From Nemertoderma westbladi (taxonomy: Eukaryota > Animalia > Xenacoelomorpha): a DNA stretch of 63,022 nucleotides. The stretch spans positions 1 through 63,022 of the forward strand of contig JAUCBJ010000245.1 in assembly GCA_032718475.1 (NCBI GenBank). The letters are read 5' to 3'. A program made the position numbers and the translations under genes. Shown one piece after another: positions 2,319 through 40,428 of this stretch (the first letter of the stretch is position 1; every line of letters starts with the position of its first letter). The notes below the pieces were generated by a model that worked only from the letters and a program-made list of their open reading frames with translations, did no database searches and was not told the origin of the DNA.

Positions 2319-4139
2319 ATGGATAAAATAACAATATGTTGTTCATTCTGTCATATGAATGTAACTAGACATAATTATTTACGCCACCTACGCTCGCATT
2401 TTGAAAGTTATTCTTGTTTTAAGTGTCATGTCGTGACTTCATGCAGCGAAATTTGTAAACGACATGAATCAACTACTGGTTGTAAAGAAATGGAGTTCCG
2501 CACCTATCAATTGACTTGTTCTACCTGTAATAAAGAGTATACATATGAGAATTATATACGACACGATTGTCACTTGAAATGTTACTACACAAGAAAGCGT
2601 AAATTTCCGCAACATAAAAATATAATATCCAGAAAAAACTTAAGGGTGGCTCTTGGTACATGCGCAACAATTTTTACGCGGGAACAAGAAGCTCACGATA
2701 ATCGTCTTGAAATTTATGTCCACGACCTCCCAACTTCTAGAGATTATCCCGATGTAGAAACAGCATTAGCGCAAATTCGAGGTAATATTCTTCAGTTAAT
2801 ATTAGATAGATTGAAAGAAATGAATGTTCTTAGATTGTGGTTAGGTCTAAATGTATTAATGTACAGATCACATTTTTCAGAAGGTGAGCAATTGGAAACC
2901 TTTTATTTTAATTCTTCCGGTGGTGCTATTAATACTGTAGATTCATCGCAAAGTTTTGACACATGGTTTGAGTATGTGGTGGAAAATATATTACAAAAAA
3001 TAGCCATCTTTAACACACGTGGTTCGGGGTGGCGTATTAAATCTTTATTAAGGGTTGAAATTAAATTAGCTGAATCTAAGTGTAGGTCGTTACTATATAA
3101 GGGGCATGGATATATGGAATTACCTAAGGCTCTATCAGGTAAACAGTGTGTTATAAATGTACAATCGGCTGATAATGACTGTTTTAAATGGGCAATTATA
3201 TCTGCAAAATTTGGTAGCAAAGTGAAAAACAACAAACAGCGCACTTCGTCGTACAAAAATTATATGAGTCATTTCATTTTTGACAATGGGAAAAATGATT
3301 ATCCAACAGAGTGGCAGTTAGCGATTAAACTTTTTGAAAAACAAAATTCAAAATATATAATTAATTTACTATGTTGGAATAACGACAACAAACGCACCCC
3401 CGTATCTATATTAAGACAACCTCCGTTTAGTAAAATTACACCCGATAAACAGTTATTAAATATATTACTTGTAGTAAAAAATAACAATGTACCTAAACTG
3501 AATCATTATGTTTGCATAACTAACCTGAATCGATTGCTGAATACGAGAGCTCTTCATATCGGGAATAGGAAATATTGCGAAAGGTGTTTGGCTCATTTTT
3601 TTCGTGCGGAAGTTCTTCATCGACACCGTCTCGCCTGCTACCAAGGAAGAAGTCAGCGAGAGACACTACCTAATAAAAAAAGAACACACATTAGTTTTAC
3701 AAATTTAGATAGAACCTTAACCCCATTGTTTGTCACCTACTTTGATATAGAATGTATCTTACAACCGTCAGTTAATAATCAAATTATACAGGAGCATATA
3801 CCGTGTGCTGTGAGTTATTTAATTGTTCCCAATACTGAATTAATTGATGCTCCAAAATGTCATTTGAAAACATTCGTAAAGTCAAATAATAATAATAATA
3901 ATTGTATTCAAGATTTCTTAGATTCATTATATACTGATTTAACTGAATTATGTTGTTGGTCAGAAATATACACGCATAAAACTATTTCATTTACTAATAT
4001 TGATTTTGTAAATTTTGAACAAGCAAAATTTTGTTTTTATTGTAATGTTACTTTAAATAATAATGTAGGGAAAAACAGACATCATTCACATATTACAGGT
4101 AAATATATTGCGGCAGCCTGTAATAGTTGTAACCGAAGT
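2319..4139 (+). CDS. pPolB: Protein-primed family B DNA polymerase, N-terminal part (interrupted by the BEL insertion)
   Basis: N-terminal Zn-finger-like motifs, GSGW motif, DNDCFKWAI...HYVCI, CERC finger, ExoI YFDIEC, EndoVII-like CFYC...HHSHITGKYIAAACNSCN. Confidence 0.93.
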
Positions 4140-6004
4140 TATAGAATTATATTCTCTAAATGCCATGGATTTTCAAAATTTTATTTTATTTGAATTAACT
4201 TTGTTAAAAGATTACATTAAGTCCTCATTTGTATTTGCTATATCTATTTGTACGATGATTAGTCAAGTGGTTCAGTAGCTCAGTCGGTAGAGCGTTGGAA
4301 ATTATATGTAGTGTGTATTGAGTTCGAATCCTAGTAGGTGTGAATTATTTTTTGTGCAGAATTTCAACTCATTTAAATTGACCGCTACAAATTAATTGCA
4401 TTTGCTCGAAGTAAGGTTAACCAATGAGACTGTAGTTATTAGATTGTAACCAATGTCGTACGAGTTATATATTTGCTGGACCAATAGCTATCTTTAAAAA
4501 CCTGTTAGAACTCATAGAACAATCAAGAATTTTCTCGATTGATTGCGGCACAAATTTGGTATAAAAGGTGCGATTTTGTTCATTAGTTCACTACACACTT
4601 CAATCACTATTACTTCTGTTTATTGTATAATAGTTATTGTTTGATTTTGTAATAAAAGTTAGAAATACTTGTCACATCTGCCCTTTTCTATCTGTTTTAC
4701 TATGCTTCACCACGGTGAACCCAACTAAGGGACAGGATGGCTGGCTAAACATCGGGCCACAGCAATGAACGGGAACATCTAAGGAATGTACGCAGGAGAC
4801 AACCCGCAATATCACTCTTAGTTATTCGCCTGAAAGGATAGACAGCGTTCGATGCCTTGCTACCTAAGTATAAGACCAAAGATCGAAGGTAGAGGTAGTG
4901 ACACGCTGTACGCCTAAAATTACATCTAGGGACTGTACTGTTTTAATTCAGGAAAAAACCGCAGTAGACCTTCATATTCCTACGGGGGGAGAGCAGGCAG
5001 AGATACTAGTACGCAGATAGGACGTAGGCACACCGGTACAAGGCATACACATTGGTAGGGTGCAGCAAACTGTACGCCTAACTCTTGCTAAGTACAGGTG
5101 CGTCTGTGACTATTTGTAGTACAACGGTGTCCATTGCATTAGAACTTGTAGGCTAGGAGGGTTGCTGTGTTTCACCTGAATTAGGATTGTACCGTTCAGG
5201 CGGTAGGGCAGTTTACGACTAGGCGCAAATAAATTGAGGCTATTTAGGGATACTAACATCTACCGTGTCCCCGCCGACATCCTGATAGGAAGTTACCAAG
5301 CCCACCTAGGTAACCAAAATTCTAGATAGGACGCCAGGCTAGCTATTAGTAACCGTACGCCTACTGTAGTAAACTAACATATTTCTTCTTAGTATTAGGG
5401 ACCTGGTAAATTAAAATTGCCGAATTCTGGGCGTAGTATTAACCTTATGCCTGAATTTGAGTCCTGGAAATACGCAAGAGGGGAAGGAGCCTTATCATTC
5501 GTGAGTATTGGACCTACAAGTTACAAAATTAGAATATTCGTAAAATGCACACCGTACCCAGTAATTATATATATGAAGGAGCAAAACTGATTTTGACGGT
5601 TCAGAATTAACACACGCGCGTTAGAAATTATTTACACCTCAAAATATATAAAATTAACTTTTGTCCGTACTGCGCTTTGCCCGCTAGTTAGACATCTCCA
5701 GATCTCTGCACCTAGCTAGCGTCCTTTTCGCCCAACCATATAAATCACATCGCGGCAAAGTATACGAGCCCCTTAGTCCGTCAGTGAGTCAGCCTGATTT
5801 TAGGATTCGCTGCGCGGGATTTTGTTTTATCGAAGTTTGTCTGTTCGTAGACTGTTTTCTGCCTCACCGGTTATAAGGGACCGATACTGCAATATATATT
5901 CGCTTACTTGGAGTTTACTGTTTTGGTGAGAAGGTCGGATTTATGATTTGATTCACAAACTTTACAGTAAGATATTGCAGGTATTGTTACTGTCTCTTCG
6001 AATA
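4140..6004 (+). repeat. BEL 5' LTR (1865 bp)
   Basis: Direct repeat of 19476-21347. Contains CCAAT boxes (~4420-4485), TATAAAAG (~4560) and AATAAA (4651). Confidence 0.93.
4269..4342 (+). other. tRNA-derived Pol III promoter module (A and B boxes) inside the 5' LTR
   Basis: A box/D arm TAGCTCAGTCGGTAGAGC and B box/T loop GTTCGAATCC. Acceptor and anticodon arms are degenerate. A T-run follows. Confidence 0.7.
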
Positions 6005-7061
6005 GTAGGAATATGTTTTACTGAACTATGGTTCGGTAGGACTAAAGTTATTCGAAAAATTTGTATTTTGAGGTAAAAGTTTATATTTGATTAGCTAAGT
6101 GCTAATTTTTTGAAATAAAATTTGATTTGAACCGCGTGTAAAATATTTTGGAATTTAATACCGGTGTTTAAAAGGGTTTAAATACCATATTGTACCGGTA
6201 CAAAATTTTCGTAAAAAGTAAAACCAAACTCTTTTGTTTTTCAGGATTCAGAACTCATTTCTAGACTGTAACGGGAGCAAGACCGTGTTTAGCAAGTTTG
6301 GGAGATAGATAACTCAACAACCTTGGTTGGGAAAATCGCACTTCATCCACAACGCTGGAAACGGAAAGGTTCACGTCCGGTTTGTATCTGGGAATCTGTT
6401 TTTCTGGAGAATTATTGGAGTGGGTGAGTTCGAAAAGTTGCATAAATAAGTTAGGCATTACCGTATTAGTTAAAATTATTGTGGGTTCCACTGTCTCAAG
6501 TATTTATGCATTCCGTACGATTTCTTTGTTTATTGCTGAATTAGTCCGTAATTATTTGTATTTGATTTATATTTTGATAACGCATATCGTTATCCGATTT
6601 ATTTGTTATAAAATTGGCCGCTAGGCTAATTTTATTATATACTTATTCCGTGACATTTATTTGCTGTAAAATTGGCCGTTTAGGCTAATTTTATCCATCT
6701 GCTATAAAATCGGCCGGTAGGCTAATTTTATATGACTGTAATTAGTACCGTTTAAATATAAATACGGTAAATTTGATACTTTGACACTCATATTTTACTT
6801 GACTTACAACTACCGAAATGAGTGATAAACAAGACTATACGAAGAATACACCTACCGACTATTACTCATGTGACGCGGATAAGTCAGCAGCGGAAGAACT
6901 ACAAGGGAAGACTCGCGAGCCTACCGAACCTACACCGTGTGCGTCACCAGTACATCCAACGGGAGTACCGGATGCCGTAGTACGAGGCGAGGACCGAGGA
7001 CTGAGGACCGAGGACCGAGGACTTTCTAACTGTTCCGCAACCTAGATATAGGGAAACGGAC

Positions 7062-9975
7062 ATGGTAAGTTCAGTAGGAAGCCAGGAGAGTGTGGTTAGA
7101 AGCGTCGGAGGCTACATGGCGCATATTACCAGGAGTATTGGGGAAGGCCAACGCATATTAGGCGAGCTAACCGCTCCGATGTCTCGGTTTGAGTTCTACA
7201 CCCTCCAGGTTAGAGTACAAAGTAGAGTACATAAGTCCGTAGATAATCTAATTGGTCTACAAGATCTAGCTAGACAGAGACAGGACGTGGATACTCAACT
7301 TAGAATCCTCGAGAAACTAATGATCGCTAGAGAGAAACTGATTCAGTTTAAGTCGACGATTAGGCAGATACAACAGGAACAAGCGGACCAGTTGTTAGGT
7401 GAGTCAGTTTTGGACGAATTATTGCAGCCCGAGGAAGAACAGGAACTGTACCGACTGGATGGACAATTGAAACATCTGACGGACCACTTACGTATGTGCG
7501 GCGAAGACGTCGGCGATTTGGAAACCGTGCCGGAATATACGAGGGAAACTTCACCCGTACAAATCGAATCGGCACCGGGAATACTGGACCAAACGTTAGT
7601 GAGTATTCGCAGCGAAATTGGCGAGATAAGTATAGTGATGTCAGAAATTTCCAGACAGCAACAACAGCATTATAGACAACAACGGGAAGTTGAGGAACAA
7701 GCTCAACTGTTGACGGCACAAGCGGCGGTAGAAGAAGAAAAACTACGCGTTGCAAATGTTGCGAGAATCTCTCATCTGCAAGAACAAGCTGAGTTGGAAG
7801 CAGCCGAAATGGAAAGGCTAGAGTTGGACATTGCACAACAAGCGGCAGCGGCCGAGTTAGAGCGACAAGCGGCAGCAGCAGCGGCCGAGCTAGAGCGACA
7901 AAGGTTAGTTTCAGAAGCGAGAGCCGAGATGAAAAAACGGCAAATAAAGGCTCAATCAGCTATACGACAAGCGGAGTTCGAGGCGCAACAACAACAGACG
8001 GAACAACGCGAGAAAGAAGTTAAACTTCATTTCGAACTCGAGAAGAAGGCAAGAGAATTAGCCAACGCGAAGGAAGATCTGGATCTACAAGCCCGCGATC
8101 AATCGATGAGATCTCGAGATGGACACGATCTAGACCAGTTAGAGGTAAGGCACCGCCAAATTCAGGAACGAATGAAGGAAGGAAGTGTAGGGGCACCTGG
8201 GCGAGAAAGACAATTGGTTAAAGACTTATGTCAAAGATTCCCTCAAGTAACTCCTATGTTTGTACCGATTACGACTAAGGAACCTGTTTCGATTGCTGGT
8301 AGTAGTAATATTTCTCCTATCCATGGTGCGACGGAACACAGGTTTGTTATTCCGGACAAGTTTACACCGCCAAGAGCAACATCGTCGCCCATTCTGAAAG
8401 TCAAGGTAAGTAACCCACCGATTACAGATCGTAGTAGTTTGTTGACCGGACCTGCACTACTGACGACAAAACGGGTGAGTCCACCTTCGACACCAAAACT
8501 CGTTACGCACTACACGTACCCAATGACGTTTAGGCCTACAAAGCCTTTGGATTCAAACGCTGTCGTCCGACCACCGTTTAATCAGTTTACATCGCAATCT
8601 ACGACTTCGAGGAAGACTTATGAGCCTACCGAACAACGGAGACCAGTGGATACGCGACCGTTTAATCAGTTTACATCGCAATCTACGACTTCGAGGAAGA
8701 CTTGTGAGCCTACCGAACAACGGAGAACAGTGGACGATGTTCCAAAACGGAATGTTAGAATTCGAACGACACAACGGACGCGAGCACGTCAACCACCGTA
8801 TCCAGGTGATAGTAGTACTTCGAGTGAATCGGATTACCCGAAACGCGAGGTATTTAGAACAGGAGCGGCCGACGAATATAAACGTGAGCGTTCAGATAAC
8901 TCCTTTATCGATAATCCTCCACAAAATACACCAACACAGAAAGCGTTACAACCAACAGACGTGATTAGTACGCAACAATTCGCCGATCTAATGCGACCAG
9001 TTGTAGATAAGTTGGCCCAGATAGAGGAACGTTTAGAGGAAACTCAAACTGATAGTTCGCGAGGTAACGAGTTCGAACACTCTAGACACCCGAAGCAGCA
9101 AAGAAAACAACCCTCGAGAAACACCTCGTATCAAGGAAAAGCGCCAAGACGAGAGAACATCAATTCGATTGCCAACCAAGGACGCGAAACTTTGAACGTG
9201 GCCGAGGAGATAGCGAAATTCGCAGCGAGACAAGTTTTACCGGTGCAACAACCACCGAAGTTTTCAGGTAACTCGAAACATTGGCACACTTTTGTGGACT
9301 ACATCGAAACCCAAATAGCAGCGTGCGCCTTTACATCGAGGGAGAAATTCAACTACCTGCTACAAACGCTGACGGGAGAACCGAAACGTCTAGCGGAAAC
9401 CTTTGTCGGTGTACCAGATGCCTTCGAACTAGCGTATGATCGCTTAACTTCGATTTACGGAGGTACCGTGAGTATGGCTAAGTCAGTGATAGAAGAACTC
9501 TGTAAGGGGGGGGGCTATAACAAAACCCGTTGACTTACTGAAATTAGCTGACGAGATTAAGAACGCCATTACTACACTACGCTCGATTGGACAACTTGAC
9601 TACGCGAACACTCCGACAGTCCTATTAAAAATAATAGGAAGATTACACCTTCGACTTCGTCGGGAGTGGCGAAAGATAGAATATCAGCGAGAAGAGAGAG
9701 GCGGATTCTTGAAGTTGGAAGACGTCTACTTACTAATATCCAGAGAGGTAGTAGTCGAGACGCGTTCGAACTACACGGACCAACATATCGTGGCGGAAGG
9801 AATAACATTACCATCCTCGAACCGACAAAAACCCCAAACAACATCCACCAAGACGGTTACTTACGCCACATCGACCGACACCCGACAATTTTCAGACAGT
9901 AATAAGGTATCCGCACCAATTGGAACCAAACAGATCCGACAGCAACTGAGCACAGACTTTAACGGTTACCTAAAG
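7062..9975 (+). pseudogene. gag: BEL gag N-terminal/capsid region, frameshifted at G9 run 9506-9514 and interrupted at 9976
   Basis: Coiled-coil region followed by BEL gag motif PPKFSGNSKHWHTF...KFNYLLQTLTGEP...AYDRL. After the frameshift the reading continues into ORF 9709-9981. Confidence 0.88.
8574..8735 (+). repeat. 84-bp in-frame tandem duplication in gag
   Basis: PFNQFTSQSTTSRKT(Y/C)EPTEQRR occurs twice. Confidence 0.9.
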
Positions 9976-11150
9976 AGGTGAGGTCTCTATAGGGGTGACC
10001 GTAGCAGGCGGCGGCAGACTCGTGAGGGTCTGGGGGCACGTTAAATCAAGTCTAAGTGCAAGGGAGATACTGAAGGCCCTCGTGTCTAACGAACCATGAA
10101 TTGCCATGGTGCCGTGGTACCGTCTAGTCGGCCTGTTGCCGTACTGCCAGTCCTGTACACAGTAGGGGTGGTGGCGTGGCGTGATTTGTGGCTCATGTGG
10201 CGTGAACTATGTTTTGTATGTGGGCGATCAGTGGCAGTTTGCTTGGGGCTTGGATGGTTCCATTGACCGTCAGCTGTTCCGTTTTTTTGATACTATATGT
10301 TATTGTCTCCATGTTCAGCTGATTTGGTCTTTGGTGGCATTGGAATAAACCGTCGGGTCTTGAGTTTTCTGTTGCTGTGGGTACGTGAGTACACGTGATT
10401 GTATGTGTGGCCACTGCGAGTGGGTATGGGAACCCTTGCCAGTTGGACAAGACGCCGCTGGTATTAGTAGGACCATACTTTACTGCGCCCCAGCATACTT
10501 TGTGCACACAAAGTTATTTTACCCTGTCGGTAAAATAAAGTACTCTCGATTTGCCTCCGATCGATACAATTTGTCCCTTCTGATTTTGACCCCGATTTTG
10601 TCTTTACCCGATTATGTCCTCTGTGTGTGCATGGTATGTGTCAGATTTTGTGTTTACCGTAGTGTACTTGATTTCGTGAACATCTGTTGAGTACACATGT
10701 ACAGGACGGGTAAGTGGTTACTTGTTCCTAGCTTTCGAGCTAGTCAATATTGTTTGTGGAACTTACTTCCCCTCAATATTGCCGGCGAGGCAGGTGAAAA
10801 CGTGTCAAAATTCCAATGTTGGGTAGCGGAAGCCCGCTTGGGACAAGACCGTCGGTTAGGCCCAAGGGCGACCTTGGTGCTCGATCGCTATCGACTGGTC
10901 CACCTGCCGGTTGACTCTTTGTTATACTTTGAGTTGGCTCAATGTACAGTCAGGCCACAGTAAGTTGACAGTAGCCGCCCATCTGGCTACACGTTCGACG
11001 AGCTGTGCTGGTGTGATCGGGGGACCGAAAACAGAACTCGGGAAGCATCAGGCCACCCTCCGGCCCGGTCTGATAATAACATCTGTCGGACTGGCCCCAG
11101 GGGTGGTGGAAACACGTCCGCCTCATGGGTGCGCCTCGGGGAGGAGCCCA
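9976..11150. mobile_element. 1175-bp non-coding insertion in BEL gag, possibly a solo LTR
   Basis: 4-bp TSD AAAG at 9972-9975 and 11151-11154. Removal restores NGYLK-DESGQYCER in frame. Ends in CA and has internal AATAAA. Confidence 0.75.
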
Positions 11151-14100
11151 AAAGGACGAAAGCGGCCAATATTGTGAACGGCTAGGTAAACGACATACTA
11201 GCCATAAACTGAGAGGTTGTCGACTATTCCGCGAATTGAACTCAGAGGAACGACGACTACAAATACGGCCATTGGACTCTTGTTGGCGGTGTACGCTACA
11301 TGGACATGTCCGTAAAGACTGCCCAAATACAGACACTTGTCCTTCCTGTGGACGCAACCATGACGGTTTGCTCCACACAGACAGTCATACGCCGCCCAAA
11401 CGCTTCACCAGGGAACACCCGGAAGCGGCAGCAAGATGCAACACAGCATATAAGGGTCGAGAGTCGAAAACAACACCGACTTTCGTGACTCACATTAGAG
11501 ATTGGTTCTCGGAACAATCAGGATCGTCGGAGGAAGAGTCGGAAGACGACGACGTTTACTTTGATACTGGAGACGAACAACCATCGATTGCGCTTCTGAC
11601 GCCTGATCAATTAAAGGGGTTTAGTATAATTCCTGTCAAGATTACTGGCACCAAAGGAAGCAAGAGGATCTACGCTATCCTGGATTCAGCCTCATCTCAT
11701 AGCTACGTGGATGAGAAAGTAGCTGATGTTGTGACGGATCTCCGACAAGGTAAGAACGTCAGTTACACCGTAAGTAGTATGCATGGACAACGTGCAATAC
11801 CAGTGACACGAGTTAAGTTGAACTTAGACACTCTTCTTCCGAAATCGCAACATAGCGAAAAGGAGAGGTCTTTGTTACCCTTTAAAGATTTAACCTTTGC
11901 GGCCACAAAGGACTTTAGTAACCTACTAGGTCCTGTCCCAGAACAATCCTTGGAGGACCGTAAGTACTTCAGACACCTTGGTGTACCTGAATGTCCTGTC
12001 AACTATAGGTCGGTAGCAATGCTGATCGGGACAGATCAATTCAACCTACATCAAGTGTGGGAAACCAGACCATCGGCAGTCGTAGCGGGAAACGCATACG
12101 CCTGTAGAACGCCGATAGGGTGGTATACTCGAGCGCCTGTGCGCACACTGGATATAAGTGACGAGGAAGACGATATACAAAGTACATGTAGTTTATTAAC
12201 TACAACTTCGACTCATTCCTTTTCACACGACCGAGACTATACTACACAAGCGTCGACAAAACACGACAACATGACAAGTACGACGTGTGTAGCTAATACG
12301 ATAAGTCACAAGGAGCAGCTAATCCACCAGGTGAGTTTAGAACTTGGGAAGAAGACGAGTCAGCCAGAGATTCCATCGACGACAGATGATAACGCCGGAA
12401 GGCTTGCGAGTCTACCTCAACCAATAACCTCAACAATGCCTGTCGATATCGATGATGACGCGTTAAGAAATCATCAAGTGGAACAAGCTGCATTGGACAA
12501 AGAATTAACGGAGAAGACTATCAGGTGGTTAGAACAAGATACAGCTGAACCTGGTAGCTACGAACCATGTATGTCGGAACAAGAGAAACAATCTTTGAAG
12601 ATCATGGAAGATACTATCCGCCAGACGAAAGACGGACATTATGAGGTAGGGATGCTATGGCGTAACCAACGTCCTAAACTCATAAATAACTATCCGCTAG
12701 CCTTAAGACGTTTACACTCAATACGACAACGTCTATTAAAGGACGAGAAAGCCCATCTGCAGTATAATACTCAGATGGAGACGTATTTAACGAAGGGATA
12801 CGCTATCAGAATGACTAACCCAGAGATTGTGACTGACCAGACATACTACTTGCCACATCACTACGTGAGACCAGACAAACCAGACAAAGTACGTGTAGTC
12901 AATGACTGCGCGGCTCTGTTTGAGGGAATGTCCCTCAATAGTGAGTTAATGGATGGACCAAACATGAATAATTATCTTATGGGGGTGATTATGCGCTTCC
13001 GTCAGCGTCAAGTAGCCTTTACTTGTGACGTCGAAGCTATGTTTCACCAAGTGCGAGCGTTTTCGGTGCCAGGGACAGCCCAAACTGTACGATGTACGCC
13101 CTAAAGCAAGCCGCTAGGGATCAGAAACATATATATGACCCAGAGATAATCAAGATCGTAGAACGCGACTTTTACGTGGACGATGGTTTACAGAGTTGTG
13201 ACACAGTAGAACGTGCTATTACAGTAGCACATCAATTACGGGACTGCTTAGCGGGCGGAGGTTTTAACCTCACCAAATTCGCCTCAAACAGTGCCGAATT
13301 GGTAGACTCATTCGGAATGACTGAGCGTGGAGGTGGTGACATTGACCTAGAGTTCGAACCACTACCGACGACCAAGGTGTTGGGGCTCTTTTGGGACCCA
13401 AACACGGACAACTTTCGAGTGAAGGTGAGACTGGACACTCAAGAAAACATTCTGACAAAGAGATCCTGCTTGTCAAAATTGAGTCGATTATTCGATCCAT
13501 TAGGATTCATCAGCCCAATAATACTGCAAGCCAGAATTTATATGCGCAGCATTTGGAAGGATGGACTGACATGGGACGAGCCGATCTCATCAGAACAAGT
13601 GGACTTATGGAAAACCTGGGAGGCAGAATTATCTTCAATAGAGGATTATTCCATACCCAGAGTGTACTTTCCATTACAAACGACATTTCCTGACAACTTG
13701 GAATTACATTGTTTCTCCGACGCCAGTGACAACGGCTTTGGTGTGGCAGCGTATTTACGCAGACAAGTAGACTCAGACGAGTTTGATGTTTCGCTCATTA
13801 CTTCTAAGGCTAAAACCATGCCTACTAAGTATATGACGACACCACGCGCTGAGCTACAAGCCGCAACCCTGTCAACCACAATCGTGAACCTTATACAGAC
13901 GGAACTACAGTCAAGTTTACAGATATTTTATTGGACTGACGCGACGTTGGTTTTATTTTACATAAACAACGACACACTTGAATTCAAGACATTCGTAGCT
14001 AACCGTCGCGCAGAAATTCTAGACCGTTCAATAAAGGAAGATTGGCGACATTGTCCCGGACCACAAAACCCAGCCGATATTGCGTCGCGAGGAATGATGC

Positions 14101-16512
14101 CTGAGGAATTCTGTAAACCGGAGAACAAAGAATTTTGGCAACACGGACCACAATTCTTGCAAAGATCAGTACAACATTGGCCGCCACTATACGACAACAA
14201 GTCTAACACTATCCCTAAAGACGCGGAAATTAAAAAACCAAAGAAAGGGAAAGCAAAGAAAAGGACGGCGGCTAAACTCAAGAAAAAACCGAAGGCGAAA
14301 TGGAAAGATATAACTTCAAAGGTCAAGAGCGGAAGACTTGCGAGCCTTTCTACACCAGACATATCGCCAGACGCGTTACTAGACGGTCAACCAGACGTTT
14401 TGCCAGACATATCACAAAATGTTCTACCAGACACTAGTAACATATTGACAAATAGTAAAGCCGCAGTTTCTCTATTGGAGCGGCCTTCTATAGACAAACA
14501 TCCAGACACGTTACCAGACGTATCGCCAGACGCGTTACTAGACGGTCAACCAGACGTTTTGCCAGACATGTCACTAGATATTTCGCCGGATGTTCCGCGA
14601 AACATTTTACCAGACATGTCACAAAATGTTCTACCAGACACTAGTAACATATTGACAAATAGTAAAGCCGCAGTTTCCCTATTGGAGCGGCCTTGTATTG
14701 ACAAACTACCAAATTTGACACACTTGAGTAACCATAAGCACAGTGAAACCTCATGTATTACAGATGTGGGTAGTACCTACGTAAATGTAAATACAGGTGT
14801 TACTTTGCGCTCAAGAGACATACCAAACTTGCAACCTATGGTGAGACCTGGGATTAATATCGGCAGAAAAATAAGTTTACCGAAACCCAGTGACCCCATA
14901 GAGTTCAAACCACCATTAACGATCGACTTACAAAGTACTGACAACCAGGGTAAGAAAACAAAGAAGGACAAATTACTTGTAGACCCGGACGGATCAACAG
15001 TCAACAAGGGAATACCTACCGGCGGACCCGTGGGCCCTTCTAGTAAATCAAAACCTTCCAAATTCTCCATTGACTTACCTGATGACGTCACAAATACTTA
15101 CGTCGACCGTATTGTAAACTTAACAGATTCTTGGACAAACGCTTGCCGAAAATTAGCGTGGATTGTACGTTTTGTACAATACGTTAAAGGCAAACGCGAC
15201 TTTACACGTCGACTTACATTGACTGAGATTGACAGGTGTGAAATTAAATTAATTCGCCATTACCAACTGCGATATTTCGCGCGCGAATTCACATCTATAA
15301 ATCAAGGTCAACCAATCAAGTCGTCACCAATATTGAGTTGGAGTCCGATAATTTATAATGGCTTAATTTGTCATAAATCTCGGCTTGAAAACATTGACTT
15401 TAACACAAACTTTAGATACCCAATAATAATACCGCAGCATCACGAATTACAACGTGCAATGATACTGGACGCACATTTACATCTGAAACACGCTGGAAGA
15501 CACCACTGTCTTTCCTACTTACGTACAAGATTTGTATTAATTAGACCCAGTAAAGCGTTAAGTTCAGTGACACGTACGTGTATTATTTGTAAAAAGGTAC
15601 ATTCTAGAATAGGTACCCAAGAAATGAGTGAACTTCCACAAGCACGACTTCAAGCATTCAGACCACCTTTTACAGAGACTGGAATTGATTGCTTTGGTCC
15701 CATACATACGAAACGTGGACGTATACTAGTAAAACGCTGGGGACTGATTTTCACATGTATGTCCAGTAGGGCAGTTCATATTGAACGTGTGATGGATCTT
15801 TCCACCAACGCGTTTATACTAGCATTGCGGCGATTTATCGCTAGACGCGGACTAGTGAAATGCTTGTACTCAGACCAAGGGACAAACTTTGTTGGTGCCC
15901 GAAATGAAATTGCTAGAGCCTTTAAGAAATTAGATCATGATCAAATCTCAAACGAACTACGTCCTTACAAGATTGTTTGGAAGTTTAATCCTCCAGATAG
16001 TCCATGGAGAGGCGGAGTCTGGGAGAGATTGATTAGATCTATAAAAACAGCCATGGCGAAAGTAATTCCAGTAAACCACATTTTGACAGACGACCAACTG
16101 ACTGACGACCAACCAACTGACTACTTTGACGCCTATTTCTTTTCCAACAGAAAGCGACAGCTACGGTAGAAAAGCGTGGAAAATCACGCAACTACTAGCT
16201 AACAAATTCTGGGAAATATGGCAAAACCATTATTTGCCCTCTATTTCTGCCAGAACAAACTGTTACAATAACACCCGCGCATTAAAGCCGGGAGATCACG
16301 TGCTGTTAGCAGAAGTGAATCTAAAAAGACGCTTCTGGATAACAGGTGTAATTTTAGCCACACATCCATCTATGGATGGAGTGACAAGAACTGTGACGGT
16401 ACGGACAATTGACGGTCGTACAGTAGACAGACCGACTCAACGTCTCGTACTTCTTGAAGAGACTCGTAACGAGTCTGGAGACTACAAATCTCCAACTAAT
16501 ATTAGTAAATAA
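11151..16512 (+). pseudogene. pol: BEL gag Zn knuckles plus pol (PR, RT, RNase H, integrase), with deletions and frameshifts
   Basis: CWRCTLHGHVRKDC, CPSCGRNH, protease ILDSAS, RT YLPHH...DVEAMFHQV and FYVDD, RNase H HCFSDAS, integrase HHCC, GIDCFGP, SDQGTNF, GGVWERL. Frameshifts near 13060 and 16120. Confidence 0.93.
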
Positions 16513-17067
16513 TTAGGAGTTTACAAATAGATTTCCACGTACCTGTACACCATAGTAAGGACAGCGGTAGAATTCCATTGTCTTTATATGTGAACATTGA
16601 GGGTAGTACCCTTATGTGTCACATAGGAGCGGGATTTGTAGGTATAAGAAATGGAATTCTACTTGGAACTCACAATATTGAGACATTTTCGAAATTTTAG
16701 ACAATCCATTTGGATTTGAAAAATTTTTAAAATTTTCTCCAGTGAATAGATTTCAGGGTACAGTCGGGTGGAACTTAAAATTAGAGAAACAAGAGAGGAA
16801 GACTTGCGAGCCTTTCTTAAAATTTTAATTTAAATTTTACACGGTCTTGTTTCAATAAGTTACGTCAATAAATAGACTTCCCTATATTTATTACTAATTC
16901 TTGACTGCTTATTTTCTGATAATAGTTTGGGATCAAAAAGTGAGTATTTTTGACTCACAGCCAGTTTAGCCCAAATTCGTTTTTATTTCGGCAAAAAATT
17001 TTAGATAAGAAGCAGCGTGTCATTAAAGAAACCCTAGATCTTAGGCTATGGGTAGGAGGTTAGAGCG

Positions 17068-18072
17068 TTGTCGAGCCAAAAGGGCAGACGAAAACTCTCA
17101 CGTCTCCTCACAACTAACTACAAACTCTGTTGTATTCCCTCTAGTAGTAATGATTATGTAACTACACCTCTAATTATGGAGAAGGAGATACATGGAGAGC
17201 CGAGATGGGGATATGATATCCAAGAGGAAGCAGCAGCGCCATTCGAAAGATTTGGAGCCAAAGAATACACTATATTTGGTATAAAAGAATTATCAGAAAG
17301 TACTGCGAAACTCGCGAGAACTAAATATGACTCGAATGTATTAAAGAGAAGGCAAAACGCATTAAATGAAAGAATCGAAAGTTTGCGCAAAACCTTCAAT
17401 GAACTTTACCCGTATGACGCTTTGTGTGATACGGGAGACATTAGCGAAGACCCCGATACTGAAATTAGTGGTTTGTATCATACCATGCAATACCTAAAGG
17501 CGCACGAACCTATGCCTGCGGTACGAGATGAATTCGATGGAATGCACCTTTACAGACGAACTCGAGGGGACGATAGAGAAACAAAGGAAGCATTTTCAGT
17601 TTATAAACTTTATTATCAATGCGGTTCTTGTATGCGCGAACAACGAAATGCGATTCCAATGCGTTTGAATAAGGAAAATCCCGAACCGATATTGGCGAGG
17701 TGTTCGAACCATCAACAACTACGCTACCAGGAAGGAGGGTATCCTTTATCAAATCCATATCATTCGTTTGCTATGACTGGACCAAAGGCGGGAGAAACTG
17801 TCGTTTACCCACCTAAGGTTGTTGAACCCGATGCATTTGAACTTACGCTGGACGAGGCGAATCAGTCAACCCGCGAAAAGAAAGAAGCTCTTAGCCTATA
17901 CAGAGCCTACAAGGCTTTCGAGAAAGGTGAGATGGAAGAATGGGGCGGAAGACTCGCGAGCCTACCTTACCATTGGACGTCACACGATCAAACTTCAGCT
18001 AAGGAGATGACACCGGAAATTTTCGAAAGTATAAACTTTGCCCAAAATGTTCAATCGTATCACATATGGTGA
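17068..18072 (+). CDS. Extra ORF downstream of the BEL integrase, unknown function
   Basis: 334-codon ORF (likely ATG ~17197) in the env position. CGSC...RCSNH is a possible metal-binding site. No hydrophobic TM segment seen. Confidence 0.6.
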   Translation: MSSQKGRRKLSRLLTTNYKLCCIPSSSNDYVTTPLIMEKEIHGEPRWGYDIQEEAAAPFERFGAKEYTIFGIKELSESTAKLARTKYDSNVLKRRQNALNERIESLRKTFNELYPYDALCDTGDISEDPDTEISGLYHTMQYLKAHEPMPAVRDEFDGMHLYRRTRGDDRETKEAFSVYKLYYQCGSCMREQRNAIPMRLNKENPEPILARCSNHQQLRYQEGGYPLSNPYHSFAMTGPKAGETVVYPPKVVEPDAFELTLDEANQSTREKKEALSLYRAYKAFEKGEMEEWGGRLASLPYHWTSHDQTSAKEMTPEIFESINFAQNVQSYHIW

Positions 18073-18688
18073 ATTTGACCGTTTTCGAACAGAAAAGCGA
18101 AATAAAGGAGCTTGGTTAACCGTCGCATGGGCGTACCGAGCCGCGTTCTATCATAGGCGTATACGAGCGAGCGTATTCGAGGAAGAGGAGATCCTAGAGG
18201 CGACCGACATACCAGCCACTCCGGTTGCGCCGTCTCCACGTCACCCTCGGGAGGACGGACAGGGTAGGATCATAAGGGTCCAGAAAGTGAGCCAACAATT
18301 AAAGAAGTCTATTAATATAGAAGAACGCAAGGGAGTTGAGCCGACCATTCGAATTACTCGGGATACGGTATCGCTTCCTAGAGAACCAACAGGAGGATCG
18401 GGACATACACCAGCTGATCAAAAGGGGGCGCAAGCTACTCTTGGGTCTGCGTCGTCCGCTTCCCGCGCGTTCCCAGACGTTTTACCAACTGTAGTGACAA
18501 CTGATCGGTCACGAGGAATCGGTCGAGGTTTCGGGATACCAAATAGACGAATTTGTGAGGAAATGGTCGCACCGTCTCCCAACGTCCAAACGAAACCAGT
18601 GACTCGCCCCACGAGTCCCATATCGCGAGCAAAGTCACCTGTGCGCAGTTTTCGAGGACACGGCAGGGCTCGATCCACTAAGCGATAA
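18038..18688 (+). CDS. Second extra ORF, or frameshifted continuation, basic and Pro/Arg-rich
   Basis: 216 codons, overlapping the end of the previous ORF in the +1 frame. Confidence 0.5.
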   Translation: MPKMFNRITYGEFDRFRTEKRNKGAWLTVAWAYRAAFYHRRIRASVFEEEEILEATDIPATPVAPSPRHPREDGQGRIIRVQKVSQQLKKSINIEERKGVEPTIRITRDTVSLPREPTGGSGHTPADQKGAQATLGSASSASRAFPDVLPTVVTTDRSRGIGRGFGIPNRRICEEMVAPSPNVQTKPVTRPTSPISRAKSPVRSFRGHGRARSTKR

Positions 18689-19475
18689 AAGGGAGGGCAA
18701 GGGTGGACGGAAGACTCGTGAGCCTTTCTTGTGAATTTGTGATTTATTTGAATTATATGTTTTATATTTAGTAAGTTTTGTATTCTGGAAGATTCATATT
18801 TAGTAAGATTTATATTTAGAAGAAAGTTATATTTTGCAAGATTTATATTTTATATTTGTGATTATTCCAAACTTATGCAATTTATATTGTTCCGAATACT
18901 ATGCAATTTATATCTTATAAGCAGTATTTGTATTTACAGTGAAATAGAAAGTAAGAGTAGATGGAAGACTCGTGGGCCTTTCTTATAGTTTCATTTGTAA
19001 AGTGTTATATTTTGTATTTAGAAAGTTTTATAGTTAGAAAGTTTTGTACTTAGAAAGACTCATATTTGTAATTATTCCGAACTTATGCAATCTACATTTA
19101 GGCACGAAAGTATTTGTAATTATTTGAATTTATGCAATATTTGAGATGCAAGAGTAGATGGAAGACTCGCGAGCCTTTCTTATGATTTTCATTTATTTGT
19201 ATTTGTAATTGTTTGAATTTATGCAATATTGAGATGCAATAGATTTATATTGGTGAATTTAATTTAGATGTATATTGTACTTACTTAGTAAAGCCTTAAA
19301 TATGTAAAGTTTGAATTTGTAATTATTTTGTATCGAATCATTATGTAGAAAGGAAGTATTGCTTGAAATTTAATTTGTAAATATGTAAGTACACCCTAAG
19401 CATTCTATAATTTGATTGATTATTGGTGAAAACCGTATATTTTATGCACGATAATATCCTGTTTTCATGGAGCGG

Positions 19476-21347
19476 TATAGAATTATATTCTCTAAATGCC
19501 GTGGATTTTCAAAATTTTATTTTATTCGAATTAACTTTGTTAAAAGATTACATTAAGTCCTCATTTGTATTTGCTATATCTATTTGTACGATGATTAGTC
19601 AAGTGGTTCAGTAGCTCAGTCGGTAGAGCGTTGGAAATTATATGTAGTGTATATTGAGTTCGAATCCTAGTAGGTGCGAATTATTTTTTGTGCAGAATTT
19701 CAACTCATTTAAATTGACCGCTACAAATTAATTGCATTTGCTCGAAGTAAGGTTAACCAATGAGACTGTAGTTATTAGATTGTAACCAATGTCGTACGAG
19801 TTATATATTTGCTGGACCAATAGCTATCTTTAAAAACCTGTTAGAACTCATAGAACAATCGAGAATTTTCTCGATTGATTGCAGCACAAATTTGGTATAA
19901 AAGGTGCGATTTCGTTCATTAGTTCACTACACACTTCAATCACTATTACTTCTGTTTATTGTATAATAGTTATTGTTTGATTTTGTAATAAAAGTTAGAA
20001 ATACTTGTCACATCTGCCCTTTTCTATCTGTTTTACTATGCTTCACCACGGTGAACCCAACTAAGGGACAGGATGGCTGGCTAAACATCGGGCCACAGCA
20101 ATGAACGGGAACATCTAAGGAATGTAGGCAGGAGACAACCCGCAATATCACTCTTAGTTATTCGCCCATCGCCTGAAAGGTTAGACAGCGTTCGATGCCT
20201 TGCTACCTAAGTATAAGACCAAAGATCGAAGGTAGAGGTAGTGACACGCTGTACGCCTAAAATTACATCTAGAGACTGTACTGTTTTAATTCAGGAAAAA
20301 ACCGCAGTAGACCTTCATATTCCTACGGGGGGAGAGCAGGCAGAGATACTAGTACGCAGATAGGACGTAGGCACACCGGTACAAGGCATACACATTGGTA
20401 GGGTGCAGCAAACTGTACGCCTAACTCTTGCTAAGTACAGGTGCGTCTGTGACTATTTGTAGTACAACGGTGTCCATTGCATTAGAACTTGTAGGCTAGG
20501 AGGGTTGCTGTGTTTCACCTGAATTAGGATTGTACCGTTCAGGCGGTAGAGCAGTTTACGACTAGGCGCAAATAAATTGAGGCTATTTAGGGATACTAAC
20601 ATCTACCGTGTCCCCGCCGACATCCTGATAGGAAGTTACCAAGCCCACCTAGGTAACCAAAATTCTAGATAGGACACCAGGCTAGCTATTAGTAACCGTA
20701 CGCCTACTGTAGTAAACTAACACATTTCTTCTTAGTATTAGGGACCTGGTAAATTAAAATTGCCGAATTCTGGGCGTAGTATTAACCTTATGCCTGAATT
20801 TGAGTCCTGGAAATACGCAAGAGGGGAAGGAGCCTTATCATTCGTGAGTATTGGACCTACAAGTTACAAAATTAGAATATTCGTAAAATGCACACCGTAC
20901 CCAGTAATTATATATATGAAGGAGCAAAACTGATCTTGACGGTTCAGAATTAACACACGCGCGTTAGAAATTATTTACACCTCAAAATATATAAAATTAA
21001 CTTTTGTCTGTACTGCGCTTTGCCCGCTAGTTAGACATCTCCAGATCTCTGCACCTAGCTAGCGTCCTTTTCGCCCAACCATATAAATCACACCGCGGCA
21101 AAGTATACGAGCCCCTTAGTCCGTCAGTGAGTCAGCCTGATTTTAGGATTCGCTGCGCGGGATTTTGTTTTATCGAAGTTTGTCTGTTCGTAGACTGTTT
21201 TCTGCCTCACCGGTTATAAGGGACCGATACTGCAATATATATTCGCTTACTTGGAGTTTACTGTTTTGGTGAGAAGGTCGGATTTATGATTTGATTCACA
21301 AACTTTACAGTAAGATATTGCAGGTATTGTTACTGTCTCTTCGAATA
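19476..21347 (+). repeat. BEL 3' LTR (1872 bp)
   Basis: Copy of 4140-6004 with a 7-bp insertion and scattered substitutions. Preceded by short purine-rich GGAGCGG. Confidence 0.93.
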
Positions 21348-21352
21348 GAAGT

Positions 21353-23596
21353 TTATCATTGAAACGATACCTGTATGTACTTTGCGGACATAATTCCAAC
21401 AATTACGATATACATTGTATATTACAAAGCGGATTTAGAGATAAGAAATATACAGATTGGGATATAAAGGTTATACCGAGAAATACAGAACGATATATTT
21501 CACTGAGTGCATTTATCCCAATTAAAAACACTTCTAAGAAAATTGAGTTACGTTTCTTAGACACATATCAATTTTTAAGCTTTTCTTTAAGTAATTTAGT
21601 TGAGTGTTCAACAAAGGATGTAGCGAGTCATGATATAAGCTCAATTTTACCTATTACTCTACAAGAAATGAAATATTTTTATCCAAACTTGAATAACTCA
21701 ACAATTAAATGGAAAGGAGTATTTCCATACGAGTACTTGACAGATATAAATAAATTTAATGATACTGGTTTGCCGTCTATAAATAATTTTTTTAGTAACT
21801 TAAGTCAAAAAACATGCACAATTGAAGATTATAGGTTTGCGGGAATATCATGGGTAGAATTCGACTGTGTGAATCTCAAAGATTATCTTTTAGCCTATTT
21901 AAAACTCGATGTTTGTTTGCTTGCTGATATATTTGAGAATTTTAGGAATGTTTGTAAACAAAATTACGATTTAGAAGCGGTTTTTTACTGTAGTATCGCG
22001 TCATTTACCTATGATTGCGCGCTAAAATATAATAAATGTAAAATAGAATTAATAAAGGATTATCAGACATATAGAGATTTTGAAAAATCAATTAGGGGTG
22101 GTGTTTCATTTTGTCGAAAGCATTATATAGAATCAAATATACCAGGTACAAGTACATATGATTCTACTAAGGAAGAATGCCATATTTTTAATATTGATTT
22201 CAACTCTTTATATTCTGGGAATTTAAGTAAAAAACTACCCACCTCACAATTCAAAGAAGTAAGTATTAAACATTTAGAGAATGCAATTCCAGAAAAACTA
22301 ATCGAGTACTTGGTAGATTTAGACATTGATGGATCTACTGGATATTTTTTAATATGTGATTTAAATTATCCCAAGGCTATTCACGATCAAACATTACAAT
22401 TACCGTTAGCCCCTGAGCATTTAAGTATAAATGAATCAATGCTTTCGCCTTATATGATGGAACAATTTAATAACTTGTCAATACAAAGAGGTACCTCCCG
22501 TAAATATAGAATGTCTATACCAAAACTCATGCTGACGCAATTTGATAAAGAGTTTTATCATTTACATTTGAAACTGTTAAAATTTTATATAAAACATGGA
22601 TTAATTGTTACTAAACTACATAAATTATATTCTTTTCAACAAGAATTTGTATTTAAAAATTACATCGATTTTAATATTAATCAAAGGCGACTGGCAAAAA
22701 GTTATATTGAAACAGCTGTCGCGAAATTGCTCAATAATTCGTTGTTTGGCAAATCAATAGAAAAGATAAGAGATCGATGTAACTTTCGTATCGCAAATAG
22801 CAACGATAAATGCGATCAATTGGTAAATCGTATTAATCATGAACAATTTATAATATACAATAATACACTATCGGGACATTTATTAGTGAAAGACTCTGTA
22901 ACTCTCGATAAGCCTATATTTATTGGTAGCACTGTGTTGGACTTGGCTAAATTGGATATGTATGAGCTGTATTACAATAAATTGCTACCTATTGAGAAAG
23001 AATTAAACTGCCGTATTGAAATTGCTGCATCAGACACTGACTCGTTGATAGGTTGTTATTATAATACATCGCAGAATAATTTTTTAAAAGCATTAATTAA
23101 AAATAATATTTTAGATACATCCAATTACCCTAAGGATCACCCACTCTACAGCGATAAAAATAAATCCAGACTCTATTACTGTAAAGACGAACTAGCCTCG
23201 CGTGAAATTAAACAAGCAGTATTTTTAAGACCAAAATTATATTCAATTTTGGAATGGAATAATAAAAATATTCGTAGAGCAAAAGGTATTACAAGAGCTG
23301 TTGTGGAAACGAATATTACACATGAAGAATATTTAAAAGCATATAACTCAAATGAAGAAATAAAAAAAATCATACACAGATTTCAATCTAAATTACATCG
23401 TATTTATACCTTAAAGCAAAATAAATTTGCACTCAGTAGCTTTGATGATAAACTTTATTGGGTTAATAAAAATCAATCACTTCCTTGGGGGCACTATAAA
23501 ACAAACCTCAAAAAACCTATAAAAATATCAAATATACCAATTTATGAAGAACCAAAAGACGATGGTGTTGATGATGAATTATCAAATAGTAAATAA
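21353..23596 (+). CDS. pPolB: pPolB C-terminal part (exonuclease II/III and polymerase motifs)
   Basis: HNSNNYD, FLDTYQF, KGVFPYEY, YLKLDV, motif A IDFNSLY, motif B KLLNNSLFGK, motif C SDTDS, AKGI. Joins 2319-4139 in frame to give ~1354 aa. Confidence 0.96.
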   Translation, partial: LSLKRYLYVLCGHNSNNYDIHCILQSGFRDKKYTDWDIKVIPRNTERYISLSAFIPIKNTSKKIELRFLDTYQFLSFSLSNLVECSTKDVASHDISSILPITLQEMKYFYPNLNNSTIKWKGVFPYEYLTDINKFNDTGLPSINNFFSNLSQKTCTIEDYRFAGISWVEFDCVNLKDYLLAYLKLDVCLLADIFENFRNVCKQNYDLEAVFYCSIASFTYDCALKYNKCKIELIKDYQTYRDFEKSIRGGVSFCRKHYIESNIPGTSTYDSTKEECHIFNIDFNSLYSGNLSKKLPTSQFKEVSIKHLENAIPEKLIEYLVDLDIDGSTGYFLICDLNYPKAIHDQTLQLPLAPEHLSINESMLSPYMMEQFNNLSIQRGTSRKYRMSIPKLMLTQFDKEFYHLHLKLLKFYIKHGLIVTKLHKLYSFQQEFVFKNYIDFNINQRRLAKSYIETAVAKLLNNSLFGKSIEKIRDRCNFRIANSNDKCDQLVNRINHEQFIIYNNTLSGHLLVKDSVTLDKPIFIGSTVLDLAKLDMYELYYNKLLPIEKELNCRIEIAASDTDSLIGCYYNTSQNNFLKALIKNNILDTSNYPKDHPLYSDKNKSRLYYCKDELASREIKQAVFLRPKLYSILEWNNKNIRRAKGITRAVVETNITHEEYLKAYNSNEEIKKIIHRFQSKLHRIYTLKQNKFALSSFDDKLYWVNKNQSLPWGHYKTNLKKPIKISNIPIYEEPKDDGVDDELSNSK

Positions 23597-24125
23597 AAAT
23601 ATAAGTTGTAAGCAGATTATTTATGGACTTAATTTAAAAGAATTAAAAAATCAATTGAATGGTAAAATTGTACTCAAACCTAATCAGTTTATATATAAGG
23701 TATTTGGTGCAACCATATTAATGTTTACAAATGGACGAATAACAATTCTCGGTAGAAAATATAATTTTAATAAAGTGAAAAAACATATATTAGAAAAAAC
23801 AAACATTAATTTGATTTTTAAATCAATCAATTTGTGTACTTATATTTTTAGTATCGATACTGTAATTTATAGGTTACTTATAAACAATATCGGGTTTTAT
23901 GTTATATTTGATAATGTTAAACTAGAAATTTCATACGATCCTGAAATATTCAATAACTGTAAAGTCAGAATAAATAATATTGTTGTTGTTTGCTGTTTCT
24001 ACACTGGTAAATGTACATTAATGTGTTCCCCGTTTAAATTTCATATATATTATCCTATATTCAACAAACTGGTTAATAATTTATTATTGTTTGGTGTGGG
24101 GGTTTTTGATGTAAAATATAATTAG
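23544..24125 (+). CDS. TATA-binding protein (TBP)-like protein
   Basis: Two-repeat TBP pattern. Repeat 1: QIVNKNIS...LNLKEL...ATILMFTNGRITILG. Repeat 2: SINLCTY...SYDPEIF...VCCFYTGKCTL. Confidence 0.72.
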   Translation: MKNQKTMVLMMNYQIVNKNISCKQIIYGLNLKELKNQLNGKIVLKPNQFIYKVFGATILMFTNGRITILGRKYNFNKVKKHILEKTNINLIFKSINLCTYIFSIDTVIYRLLINNIGFYVIFDNVKLEISYDPEIFNNCKVRINNIVVVCCFYTGKCTLMCSPFKFHIYYPIFNKLVNNLLLFGVGVFDVKYN

Positions 24126-34341: not shown

Positions 34342-34559
34342 TGTGGCAGTATAATCGTACTGCTAATGTCTCATCATAAAGTATACCGGATATGCAAAGG
34401 TATGCAATAAAAATGTATAATATGAAGGCAGTAGTTAGCCTACACCAGTACTGCAGTAAGGAAGTTAATGCAGTGAATAGTCAAGTGAAAACTCTCTAAC
34501 ACTTGTCCGAGTATATGGCAAACTCAGTAGGTCCTGAGTATGTAAGTGGCACCGCCACA
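34342..34559 (-). repeat. Gypsy 3' LTR
   Basis: Identical to 38546-38763. A G-rich PPT lies just upstream on the minus strand. Confidence 0.96.
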
Positions 34560-34583
34560 TGACCCCCCCAGACTCGGAAAGAG

Positions 34584-37500: not shown

Positions 37501-37742
37501 GTCCCGAAACGCAGCGGAATTGTGCGTTGTCCGTATGTCCTGATCGAGGTGCTATTGGCGGCTACGAGGGGCGGACCGCTTCCGCCCGCGCGTGCCTCGT
37601 GCGTCATAGCCGGGATGACGCTGACCTCGGCCCCGGTGTCCACCAGAAACCGTTGCCCGGACAGTCGGTCCAGGACAAATAGCAGCAGATCGGGGTGGCC
37701 GGCCGTAGCAGCTGCTACTGACGGCCGGCCGGGGCGTTTCCC
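34584..37742 (-). CDS. pol: Gypsy pol (PR, RT, RNase H, integrase), expressed by -1 frameshift
   Basis: [62 protein letters not shown]. Confidence 0.97.
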
Positions 37743-38455
37743 GGAAAAGTGCAGGGCGAGCGGCACTTCAGGGCGTCGGTGCCAAACTTCTGGTGGAAGT
37801 AGCACCAGTCGTCGTGAGCAGGCTGGGGGACGCGTGAACTCCGGCCGCTAGTTGGGGGGCCGGTGGAGGGCTTGTGGCGGGCCGGCCCGCCGGGACCTCG
37901 TACAGTACGCACTGCCGGCTCCGGTACGATGAGCGGCGTCGCTACAGCATGAGCGGAGAGTGAGCTCGAGCGGGAGGTTTCCCAAAGCGCGTCGGCACGG
38001 TCTGCGACGCGGTCGAGGTCGCGAAAGTCCTCCTCGGCGAGTTGGAGGCGTATGGCGTCGGGCATCTGGCGGAGGAACGCCTCCTCGAACAGCAGGCAGT
38101 GGTGGTTATCACCGAGGAGTGCCTGCATCTCACCGAGGAGCTGCGAGGGTCGGCGGTCGCCGAGGCCGTTCAAGTCCCAGAGCCGCGCGGCGCGGTCGCG
38201 GCGGGAGAGTCCGAACACCTTGAGGAGTTTGGCCTTGATCTGGGCGTACTGGTCGACAGTAGGGGGATCCCGGATCAGCTGGAGGAGGCGACTGGCAGTG
38301 TCCTGGTCGAGGGCCCCCACCACGTAGTAGTACTTAGTGGCCTCGGTTGTGACGCCCCGGATGGCGAACTGTGCCTCGGCCTGGGCGAACCAAACCTCAG
38401 GCTGGTTAGTCCAGAAGGTGGGCAGTTTCAGGGAGACGGCATTTGCCTCAGCCAT
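37715..38455 (-). CDS. gag: Gypsy gag
   Basis: KLPTFW...[12 protein letters not shown] and C-terminal [13 protein letters not shown]. Confidence 0.93.
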
Positions 38456-38530
38456 GGTGAAGGCGTTGGAGCGGGGCGCGAATAACGGGAGGGCTGTTGG
38501 TTGCAGTTCGACTCAACAAATCGTGCTGAG

Positions 38531-38544
38531 CAGTCGGGTCACCA
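38531..38544 (-). promoter_or_regulatory. Primer-binding site, tRNA-Trp-like
   Basis: TGGTGACCCGAC directly after the 5' LTR resembles the complement of the tRNA-Trp 3' end. Confidence 0.7.
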
Positions 38545-38545
38545 A

Positions 38546-40333: not shown

Positions 40334-40428
40334 GGTTAGGCTACGCGTAGGTGAATACGCAACGATTGGTTGAAGGCAAGGCAACGACGCGAATCAATAC
40401 TGTTGGTGACAGATGGTCATTAAACACT
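40334..40428 (-). repeat. Polinton right terminal inverted repeat
   Basis: Reverse complement of 1-94. Confidence 0.95.

Follow-up and report, generated by a model that had tools for sequence, protein, structure and literature searches.

A tRNA-like Pol III module and a predicted self-priming signature in the LTRs of a BEL/Pao retrotransposon

A tRNA-like Pol III module resides in the U3 region of both long terminal repeats (LTRs) of a coding BEL/Pao retrotransposon found in the window, by which we mean the whole 63,022-nucleotide stretch of Nemertoderma westbladi DNA analysed here. The stronger result, beside the module itself, is an exact and well-placed self-priming signature elsewhere in the same LTR. 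In the reading that we favour, with a probability of roughly one half, the module would serve in cis as a chromatin barrier, and reverse transcription would be primed by a separate segment of the element's own RNA.

The host element and its surroundings

The host of the module is a BEL/Pao element of ~17.2 kb, in which LTRs of 1.87 kb enclose an internal region of 13.5 kb. Its boundaries and principal features are as follows:

4135..4139, + strand: left target-site duplication, GAAGT
4140..6004, + strand: 5' LTR, 1865 nt, with ends TAT..ATA instead of TG..CA
7005..16470, + strand: BEL/Pao gag-pol, broken, with DUF1759, Peptidase_A17 and Integrase_H2C2 matches
17056..18688, + strand: extra 3' reading frames of 338 and 217 codons, overlapping
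19469..19475, + strand: short purine-rich tract ahead of the 3' LTR, likely PPT
19476..21347, + strand: 3' LTR, 1872 nt, with ends TAT..ATA
21348..21352, + strand: right target-site duplication, GAAGT
6907, 8612, 8696, 12398, 14332, 16798, 17948, 18710, 18964, 19161: near-palindromic motif

A 4-bp AAGT duplication, which would lengthen the LTR by one base, is formally possible; we favour the 5-nt duplication because the LTR ends are symmetric. In a contig of sequencing run X5, position 4140 joins directly to the Polinton sequence found after 21352, which represents the empty site. The copy is young yet broken. Its 5' and 3' LTRs are 98.7% identical, differing by 16 substitutions and one 7-nt indel, and its gag-pol changes frame near 9500, 13059 and 16100-16130.

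Placement in BEL/Pao (Belpaoviridae) is supported by the DUF1759 gag, the reverse transcriptase, the Peptidase_A17 region and the integrase, which occur in BEL order. A protein search with pol returned generic BEL/Pao relatives at 32-42% identity (120 listed of 1,081), and the best full-alignment identity of the gag-pol among the matches listed is 42%. In metagenome scans, the pol protein gave 23 pattern matches, none of them confirmed, and the LTR/primer-site junction gave no relatives. The TG..CA ends and tRNA primer-binding site (PBS) usual for BEL/Pao are absent here; these are typical traits, not phylogenetically defining ones.

Within gag lies ~1.2 kb of extra sequence (~9960-11200), which has neither a long frame nor clear terminal repeats and is possibly a nested insertion. 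The extra 3' reading frames (17056-18688) gave no match in Pfam and protein-atlas searches, and a transmembrane-like stretch was sought in them and is absent; they are therefore not env-like. By eye, the pair displays a C-x2-C...C-x2-H spacing, which could bind zinc. The near-palindromic motif, 17-20 nt long with a core like GAAGACTCGCGAGCCT, occurs in 10 copies across coding and non-coding parts of the 13.5-kb internal region, with none in the LTRs, none in the other 45.8 kb and none in 1,000 shuffles. It may be bound by a protein that the element encodes, or may act as an RNA dimerisation or packaging signal; that the protein of the extra 3' frames reads it is speculation.

The BEL/Pao insertion interrupts the polymerase-like frame of a Polinton/adintovirus-like element that spans 1-40428, with terminal inverted repeats at 1-94 and 40334-40428. 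Alongside the split polymerase-like frame, this element carries genes for an adenain-like protease, an integrase and an ATPase, together with a TBP-like ORF at 23523-24125; the legend of an adintovirus figure also mentions a TBP-like gene (PMC8502044). A gypsy element with identical 218-nt TG..CA LTRs and a TGG primer site lies inside the Polinton on the minus strand (34342-38763), and a satellite array at 53540-62644 comprises ~241 copies of a 38-nt unit with 93% matches.

The tRNA-like module

The module and the promoter elements that follow it in the 5' LTR are:

4269..4353, + strand: tRNA-like Pol III module with D-arm, degenerate middle, T-loop and T6 terminator, and without an in-register acceptor stem
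4276..4287, + strand: A box
4322..4330, + strand: B-box core, GTTCGAATC
4348..4353, + strand: T6 run, predicted Pol III terminator, about 16-17 nt past the B box
4421..4590, + strand: putative upstream Pol II promoter, with CCAAT at 4421, 4450 and 4481 (~30 nt apart) and TATAAA at 4560

The original prediction had placed a tRNA-like cassette in U3 of both LTRs, upstream of the CCAAT/TATA promoter, and both motifs and spacing were found where this would require, at 4269-4353 and, in the 3' LTR, at 19605-19689. Its A and B boxes stand; its terminator, described as a T7 run, is T6 by count and is the sole run of at least five T in the LTR. The A box sits inside a perfect D-arm, in which GCTC (4278-4281) pairs with GAGC (4290-4293). 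From the base after the D-arm to the G of the B box there are 27 nt, and the corresponding spacing in class I tRNAs is 26 nt. The B-box core is preceded by A, where the B box of Helenus, in the passage cited, has G (GGTTC, PMC10886601).

A search pattern of A-box consensus, B-box consensus and T4 was applied to the first 53.5 kb and matched at two places only, the two LTR copies; because these are the two LTRs, they count as one event. By chance the pattern is rare: of 20,000 dinucleotide-shuffled LTRs 3 contained it, as did 1 of 300 shuffled versions of the 53.5 kb.

The module is not a tRNA gene. ARAGORN reported no gene in it at the default and 90-95% thresholds and a weak undetermined match at 60-80%, and Rfam gave no tRNA match at E<=10 over 4100-6100. 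Only the D-arm pairs; in-register pairing is missing from the anticodon, T and acceptor stems, and the predicted fold of the module RNA is no better than that of shuffles (z -0.27 to 0.08). A tRNA gene proper is thus ruled out by the missing cloverleaf and by the ARAGORN and Rfam negatives. Those parts of a tRNA that also serve as promoter are intact, in contrast to the anticodon arm and the acceptor stem; Helenus is described with the same pattern, promoter parts kept while the cloverleaf was lost (Kojima, PMC10886601). We are highly confident that the module is tRNA-derived. The CCAAT/TATA promoter downstream of it has a predicted start near 4585-4590, followed by AATAAA at 4651.

A self-priming signature in the same LTR

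The features that bear on priming are:

4972..5005, + strand: Inr-like motif (+1 at A4974) followed, at +28 to +32 (5001-5005), by a DPE-like motif
4973..4983, + strand: predicted self-primer, exact reverse complement of 6005-6015
5228..5233, + strand: AATAAA, a candidate polyadenylation signal that lies past the 4974 start and would close R
6005..6015, + strand: primer-binding position immediately 3' of the 5' LTR, without TGG
6015..6042, + strand: predicted 12-bp hairpin abutting the primer site
20316..20326, + strand: second self-primer copy, in the 3' LTR

The original prediction was right that the element lacks a conventional PBS, as nothing starting with TGG follows the 5' LTR. An 11/11 complement of 6005-6015, such as that at 4973-4983, arose in 10 of 20,000 LTR shuffles, and in 46 when the PBS was allowed an offset of 0-3; as a control, LTR complements of 11 nt or longer were found for 38 of 45,010 other window positions. 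When the junction was scanned for duplexes, the primer segment proved to be its best partner among all LTR 40-mers, at -34.3 kcal/mol versus -14.1 for the cassette. The pairing extends beyond the 11 nt, with the purine run after the primer pairing with the end of U5; 132 of 3,000 shuffles, and 26 of 1,739 other LTR segments, extend as far. Extension of the helix upstream is at chance level (564/3,000). A segment at the end of pol, 16435-16485, pairs with the U5/primer-site junction equally well (-34.2 kcal/mol), which is probably chance and alternatively, possibly, a long-range contact. The gypsy element of the same window, taken as a control, has its ordinary TGG site and a self-complement of at most 4 nt. 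Judged from sequence, self-priming through 4973-4983 is likely.

The predicted start of the replicating RNA is A4974. A search of the LTR with Inr and DPE consensus motifs gave 18 Inr matches, of which a single one, that at A4974, is followed by a correctly spaced DPE. A start at this position would give a U3 of ~830 nt. The Inr and DPE motifs agree with a primer segment that would form the RNA 5' end and be cut off by RNase H. In predicted folds, the primer helix has a probability of 0.85-1.0 in RNA starting at 4974 and is lost in all ten folds starting at 4585-4920; the helix therefore depends on the 4974 start being real. Against this start, the CCAAT/TATA promoter seems no weaker, and self-priming requires that the AATAAA at 4651 be ignored in the 3' LTR. 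Together, the CCAAT/TATA promoter and that AATAAA suggest a second transcript class. The two promoters could yield priming and non-priming RNA in the manner of Tf2, for which alternative starts are described, only one of them including the primer (PMC5341516).

Other sources of a primer were also considered. An internal fragment of a host tRNA may prime reverse transcription. A primer built by splicing was rejected, although an acceptor-like site lies at ~4951: no donor-like site of at least 6/9 occurs in 4585-4960, and the model is inapplicable because the 11-mer is contiguous. As a separate observation, the 3' arm of the hairpin beside the primer site (6030-6040) is an exact 11-nt complement of 6921-6931, which flanks the first near-palindromic motif.

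Occurrence of the module across family copies

The comparison set comprised contigs from four runs, from at most four studies and under two organism labels, one of which is possibly the source of the window. Contigs from all four runs carry the module in an LTR context, and it is very probably family-wide. It is therefore not a SINE head unique to this copy, the outcome that the original prediction had named as speaking against it. Over 4262-4562 a contig of organism B aligns with 17 differences plus 12 gap letters; upstream of this its end falls outside the alignment, yet is still similar to 4231-4248 (15/18, by eye). The spacer between the A and B boxes has a 2-nt insertion in three of the four runs. 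Among the 40 substitutions shown (of 225) and the 12 indels shown (of 95), none falls in the boxes, the primer or the primer site.

Between the two LTRs of the window copy, the 85 nt of the module hold 2 of the 16 substitutions, none in the boxes, a share no lower than elsewhere; a Fisher test of module against flank was non-significant (with 15 flank substitutions entered versus 14 listed). Runs X1 and X2 each include one low-depth contig that lacks 4310-4516, and with it the B box and the CCAAT boxes. Depth over the module was 90k in X1, against 96k and 130k in the neighbouring bins, and 67k in X2, against 65k and 82k; in X4 it falls between the depths of its neighbours. As no depth excess is present in these three DNA runs, there is no sign of a free high-copy SINE. 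No module copy beyond those of the two LTRs was found in the window, and an old or rare SINE family may still exist. In X4, bins 4233-4565 are 5-30x deeper than the remaining LTR, a summed contig depth that does not equal copy number; it gives a hint, left out of the weighing, that the U3 module is common to more abundant relatives. No run known to be of RNA is among the sequencing-run matches listed; X5 may be one, and we do not take it as a sign of expression.

A proposed role in cis

In the mechanism that we propose, a tRNA gene or SINE head would have been captured in U3 and would have lost its cloverleaf, keeping the parts read by TFIIIC. TFIIIC and Pol III would then bind the boxes, and a non-decoding RNA of ~85 nt would end at the T6 run. 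Lying 130 nt inside the LTR edge, the module would act as a chromatin barrier or opener that shields promoters 200-700 nt downstream. The replicating transcript would start at 4973/4974, fold back on 6005-6015 and be cut after 4983, as in Tf1. The precedent comes from fission yeast, in which tRNA genes are reported to serve as TFIIIC/Pol III-dependent barriers (Scott 2007, PMC2040200). Those barriers, as the passages cited describe them, likewise consist of a TFIIIC/Pol III unit at a domain edge; their activity was demonstrated for real tRNA genes, and we infer it for the present module. We give a functional barrier or chromatin opener about an even chance of being correct.

We prefer this role in cis to that of a neutral passenger, namely a SINE head or tRNA pseudogene that landed in an ancestral U3 and was copied along without function, which we regard as possible though doubtful. 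The absence of a stable fold (z -0.27 to 0.08), the degenerate middle, the two of 16 LTR substitutions that fall within the module and the low-depth contig without a B box all fit a passenger, and SINE insertion has been proposed as the origin of the tRNA-like pieces that "not a few" Repbase LTRs are said to contain (Kojima, PMC10886601). However, the decay looks selective, in that both boxes, the D-stem and the spacing have survived where the intervening arms have not; the module is retained in the organism-B copy even though the flank upstream of it there no longer aligns, and T6 stands at the expected terminator position. Far less can be said for a Helenus-type use, in which Pol III would transcribe the replicating RNA from the boxes; Helenus has the same motifs (PMC10886601), but we give this reading almost no weight. 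The T6 run at 4348-4353, followed by 16 further T4 runs up to 6070, would stop Pol III about 16-17 nt past the B box, and a 15-kb RNA is therefore out of reach. Moreover, the host is a 15-kb coding element, compared with the 311-1263 bp of Helenus, and Kojima argues that the autonomous partners of Helenus must use Pol II (PMC10886601).

Two further readings assign the function to the cassette RNA. The original prediction suggested a self-supplied primer, and the complementarity on which it drew is real, 8/10 between 4327-4336 and 6003-6012, in an element that lacks a TGG-type PBS. Yet 443 of 5,000 shuffled cassettes (9%) reach 8/10, the register of the match overlaps the LTR end, and the 3' end of a cassette RNA would be a U-run, not 4327-4336; nor was cassette/PBS complementarity found in Helenus, as Kojima describes it (PMC10886601). 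Because a separate 11-nt stretch of the LTR, at 4973, matches the primer site exactly, we hold with high confidence that the cassette is not the primer, and a priming role for its RNA or a fragment thereof is most improbable. Somewhat less remote, though still unlikely, is a small Pol III RNA acting in trans, which through its 5' end would base-pair with the leader right next to the primer site and so promote or hinder self-priming. The cassette 5' end is the top partner of 6016-6035 among LTR 20-mers (12 bp with G-U, -14.7 kcal/mol), 33 of 4,470 internal 20-mers pair with this target equally well, and foamy viruses are reported to express Pol III small RNAs from U3 (PMC3993851). This pairing was found post hoc among several comparisons, however, and its target is predicted to be buried in the local 12-bp hairpin; taken as a whole, the cassette does not stand out in its pairing with the primer region, with 1,200 of 2,682 controls as good, other LTR segments pair beside the primer site at 7-8 nt, and the cassette has no miRNA-type hairpin. 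The 3' arm of the hairpin (6029-6039) and the cassette 5' end (4268-4278) match at 10 of 11 letters. A reverse-transcription riboregulator, in which a BEL/Pao lineage that abandoned tRNA priming for self-priming would use a tRNA-derived Pol III RNA that mimics the hairpin arm and opens or blocks the primer-site hairpin, is an idea to which we likewise attach a low probability.

Comparison with known systems

Among BEL/Pao elements, Achilles shares with the present element its domain content and order, its LTRs and a short target duplication, but is described with TG..CA ends and an 18-nt tRNA-Tyr PBS, neither of which is found here (PMC4580426). Nearly all LTR elements, Bel/Pao included, are stated to retain conserved short inverted repeats (PMC3601003).

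The Tf1 primer is reportedly 11 nt long. In the passages cited for Tf1, Tf2 and Tj1 (Tf1/sushi), plant Tcn1 and TAR, the primer site likewise directly follows the 5' LTR and is complementary to the LTR, and the LTR complement lies at the predicted transcript start, as it does here (PMC4600332, PMC5341516, PMC6317226). The present element shares with Tf1/sushi a primer site complementary to an LTR segment, at 11/11, but its pol is of BEL/Pao type and not Ty3/gypsy chromovirus-related. These self-primers are Ty3/gypsy or Ty1/copia elements, whereas this one is BEL/Pao with TA..TA ends and, unlike them, has its primer and primer site ~1,020 nt apart. Here it is the downstream start that would yield the short RNA carrying the primer at its 5' end. 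We found no report of self-priming in BEL/Pao in the parts of the open-licence literature covered by our search.

For the module, the closest parallel is Helenus (TRIMp3; Kojima 2024), in which a tRNA-like sequence likewise lies in both LTRs with boxes A and B retained, again without a functional cloverleaf and without cassette/PBS complementarity in the description cited (PMC10886601). Tied together by tRNA-derived LTR sequence with both boxes, the two differ in most other respects: Helenus, a TRIM of 311-1263 bp without coding capacity, has a tRNA PBS and a Pol III promoter from which the element can be transcribed, and is mobilised by Gypsy or Copia (PMC10886601), whereas the present host is a 17-kb coding BEL/Pao element with Pol II promoter motifs, a T6 run after the B box and no tRNA PBS. 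The term "BEL" does not occur in the main text of the Helenus paper, as far as that text is covered here (PMC10886601). The present case is nevertheless probably not the only coding element whose LTR contains a tRNA-like sequence, because Kojima reports tRNA-like pieces in not a few Repbase LTRs (PMC10886601). The Pol III cassettes of foamy viruses are likewise self-contained A box/B box/terminator units in U3 of the long LTR of a coding retroelement (Kincaid 2014, PMC3993851). Those cassettes, as described there, fold into pre-miRNA hairpins and are expressed, whereas the present module is tRNA-shaped, lacks a stable pre-miRNA hairpin before its terminator and has a non-significant fold (z -0.27 to 0.08).

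Known cases comprise tRNA-like promoters in miniature non-coding LTR elements, as in Helenus, and, among foamy viruses, Pol III cassettes. If a coding BEL/Pao family has fixed a terminated tRNA-type unit in its U3, this would point to a different use, possibly that of a built-in anti-silencing barrier carried into the host genome by every new insertion.
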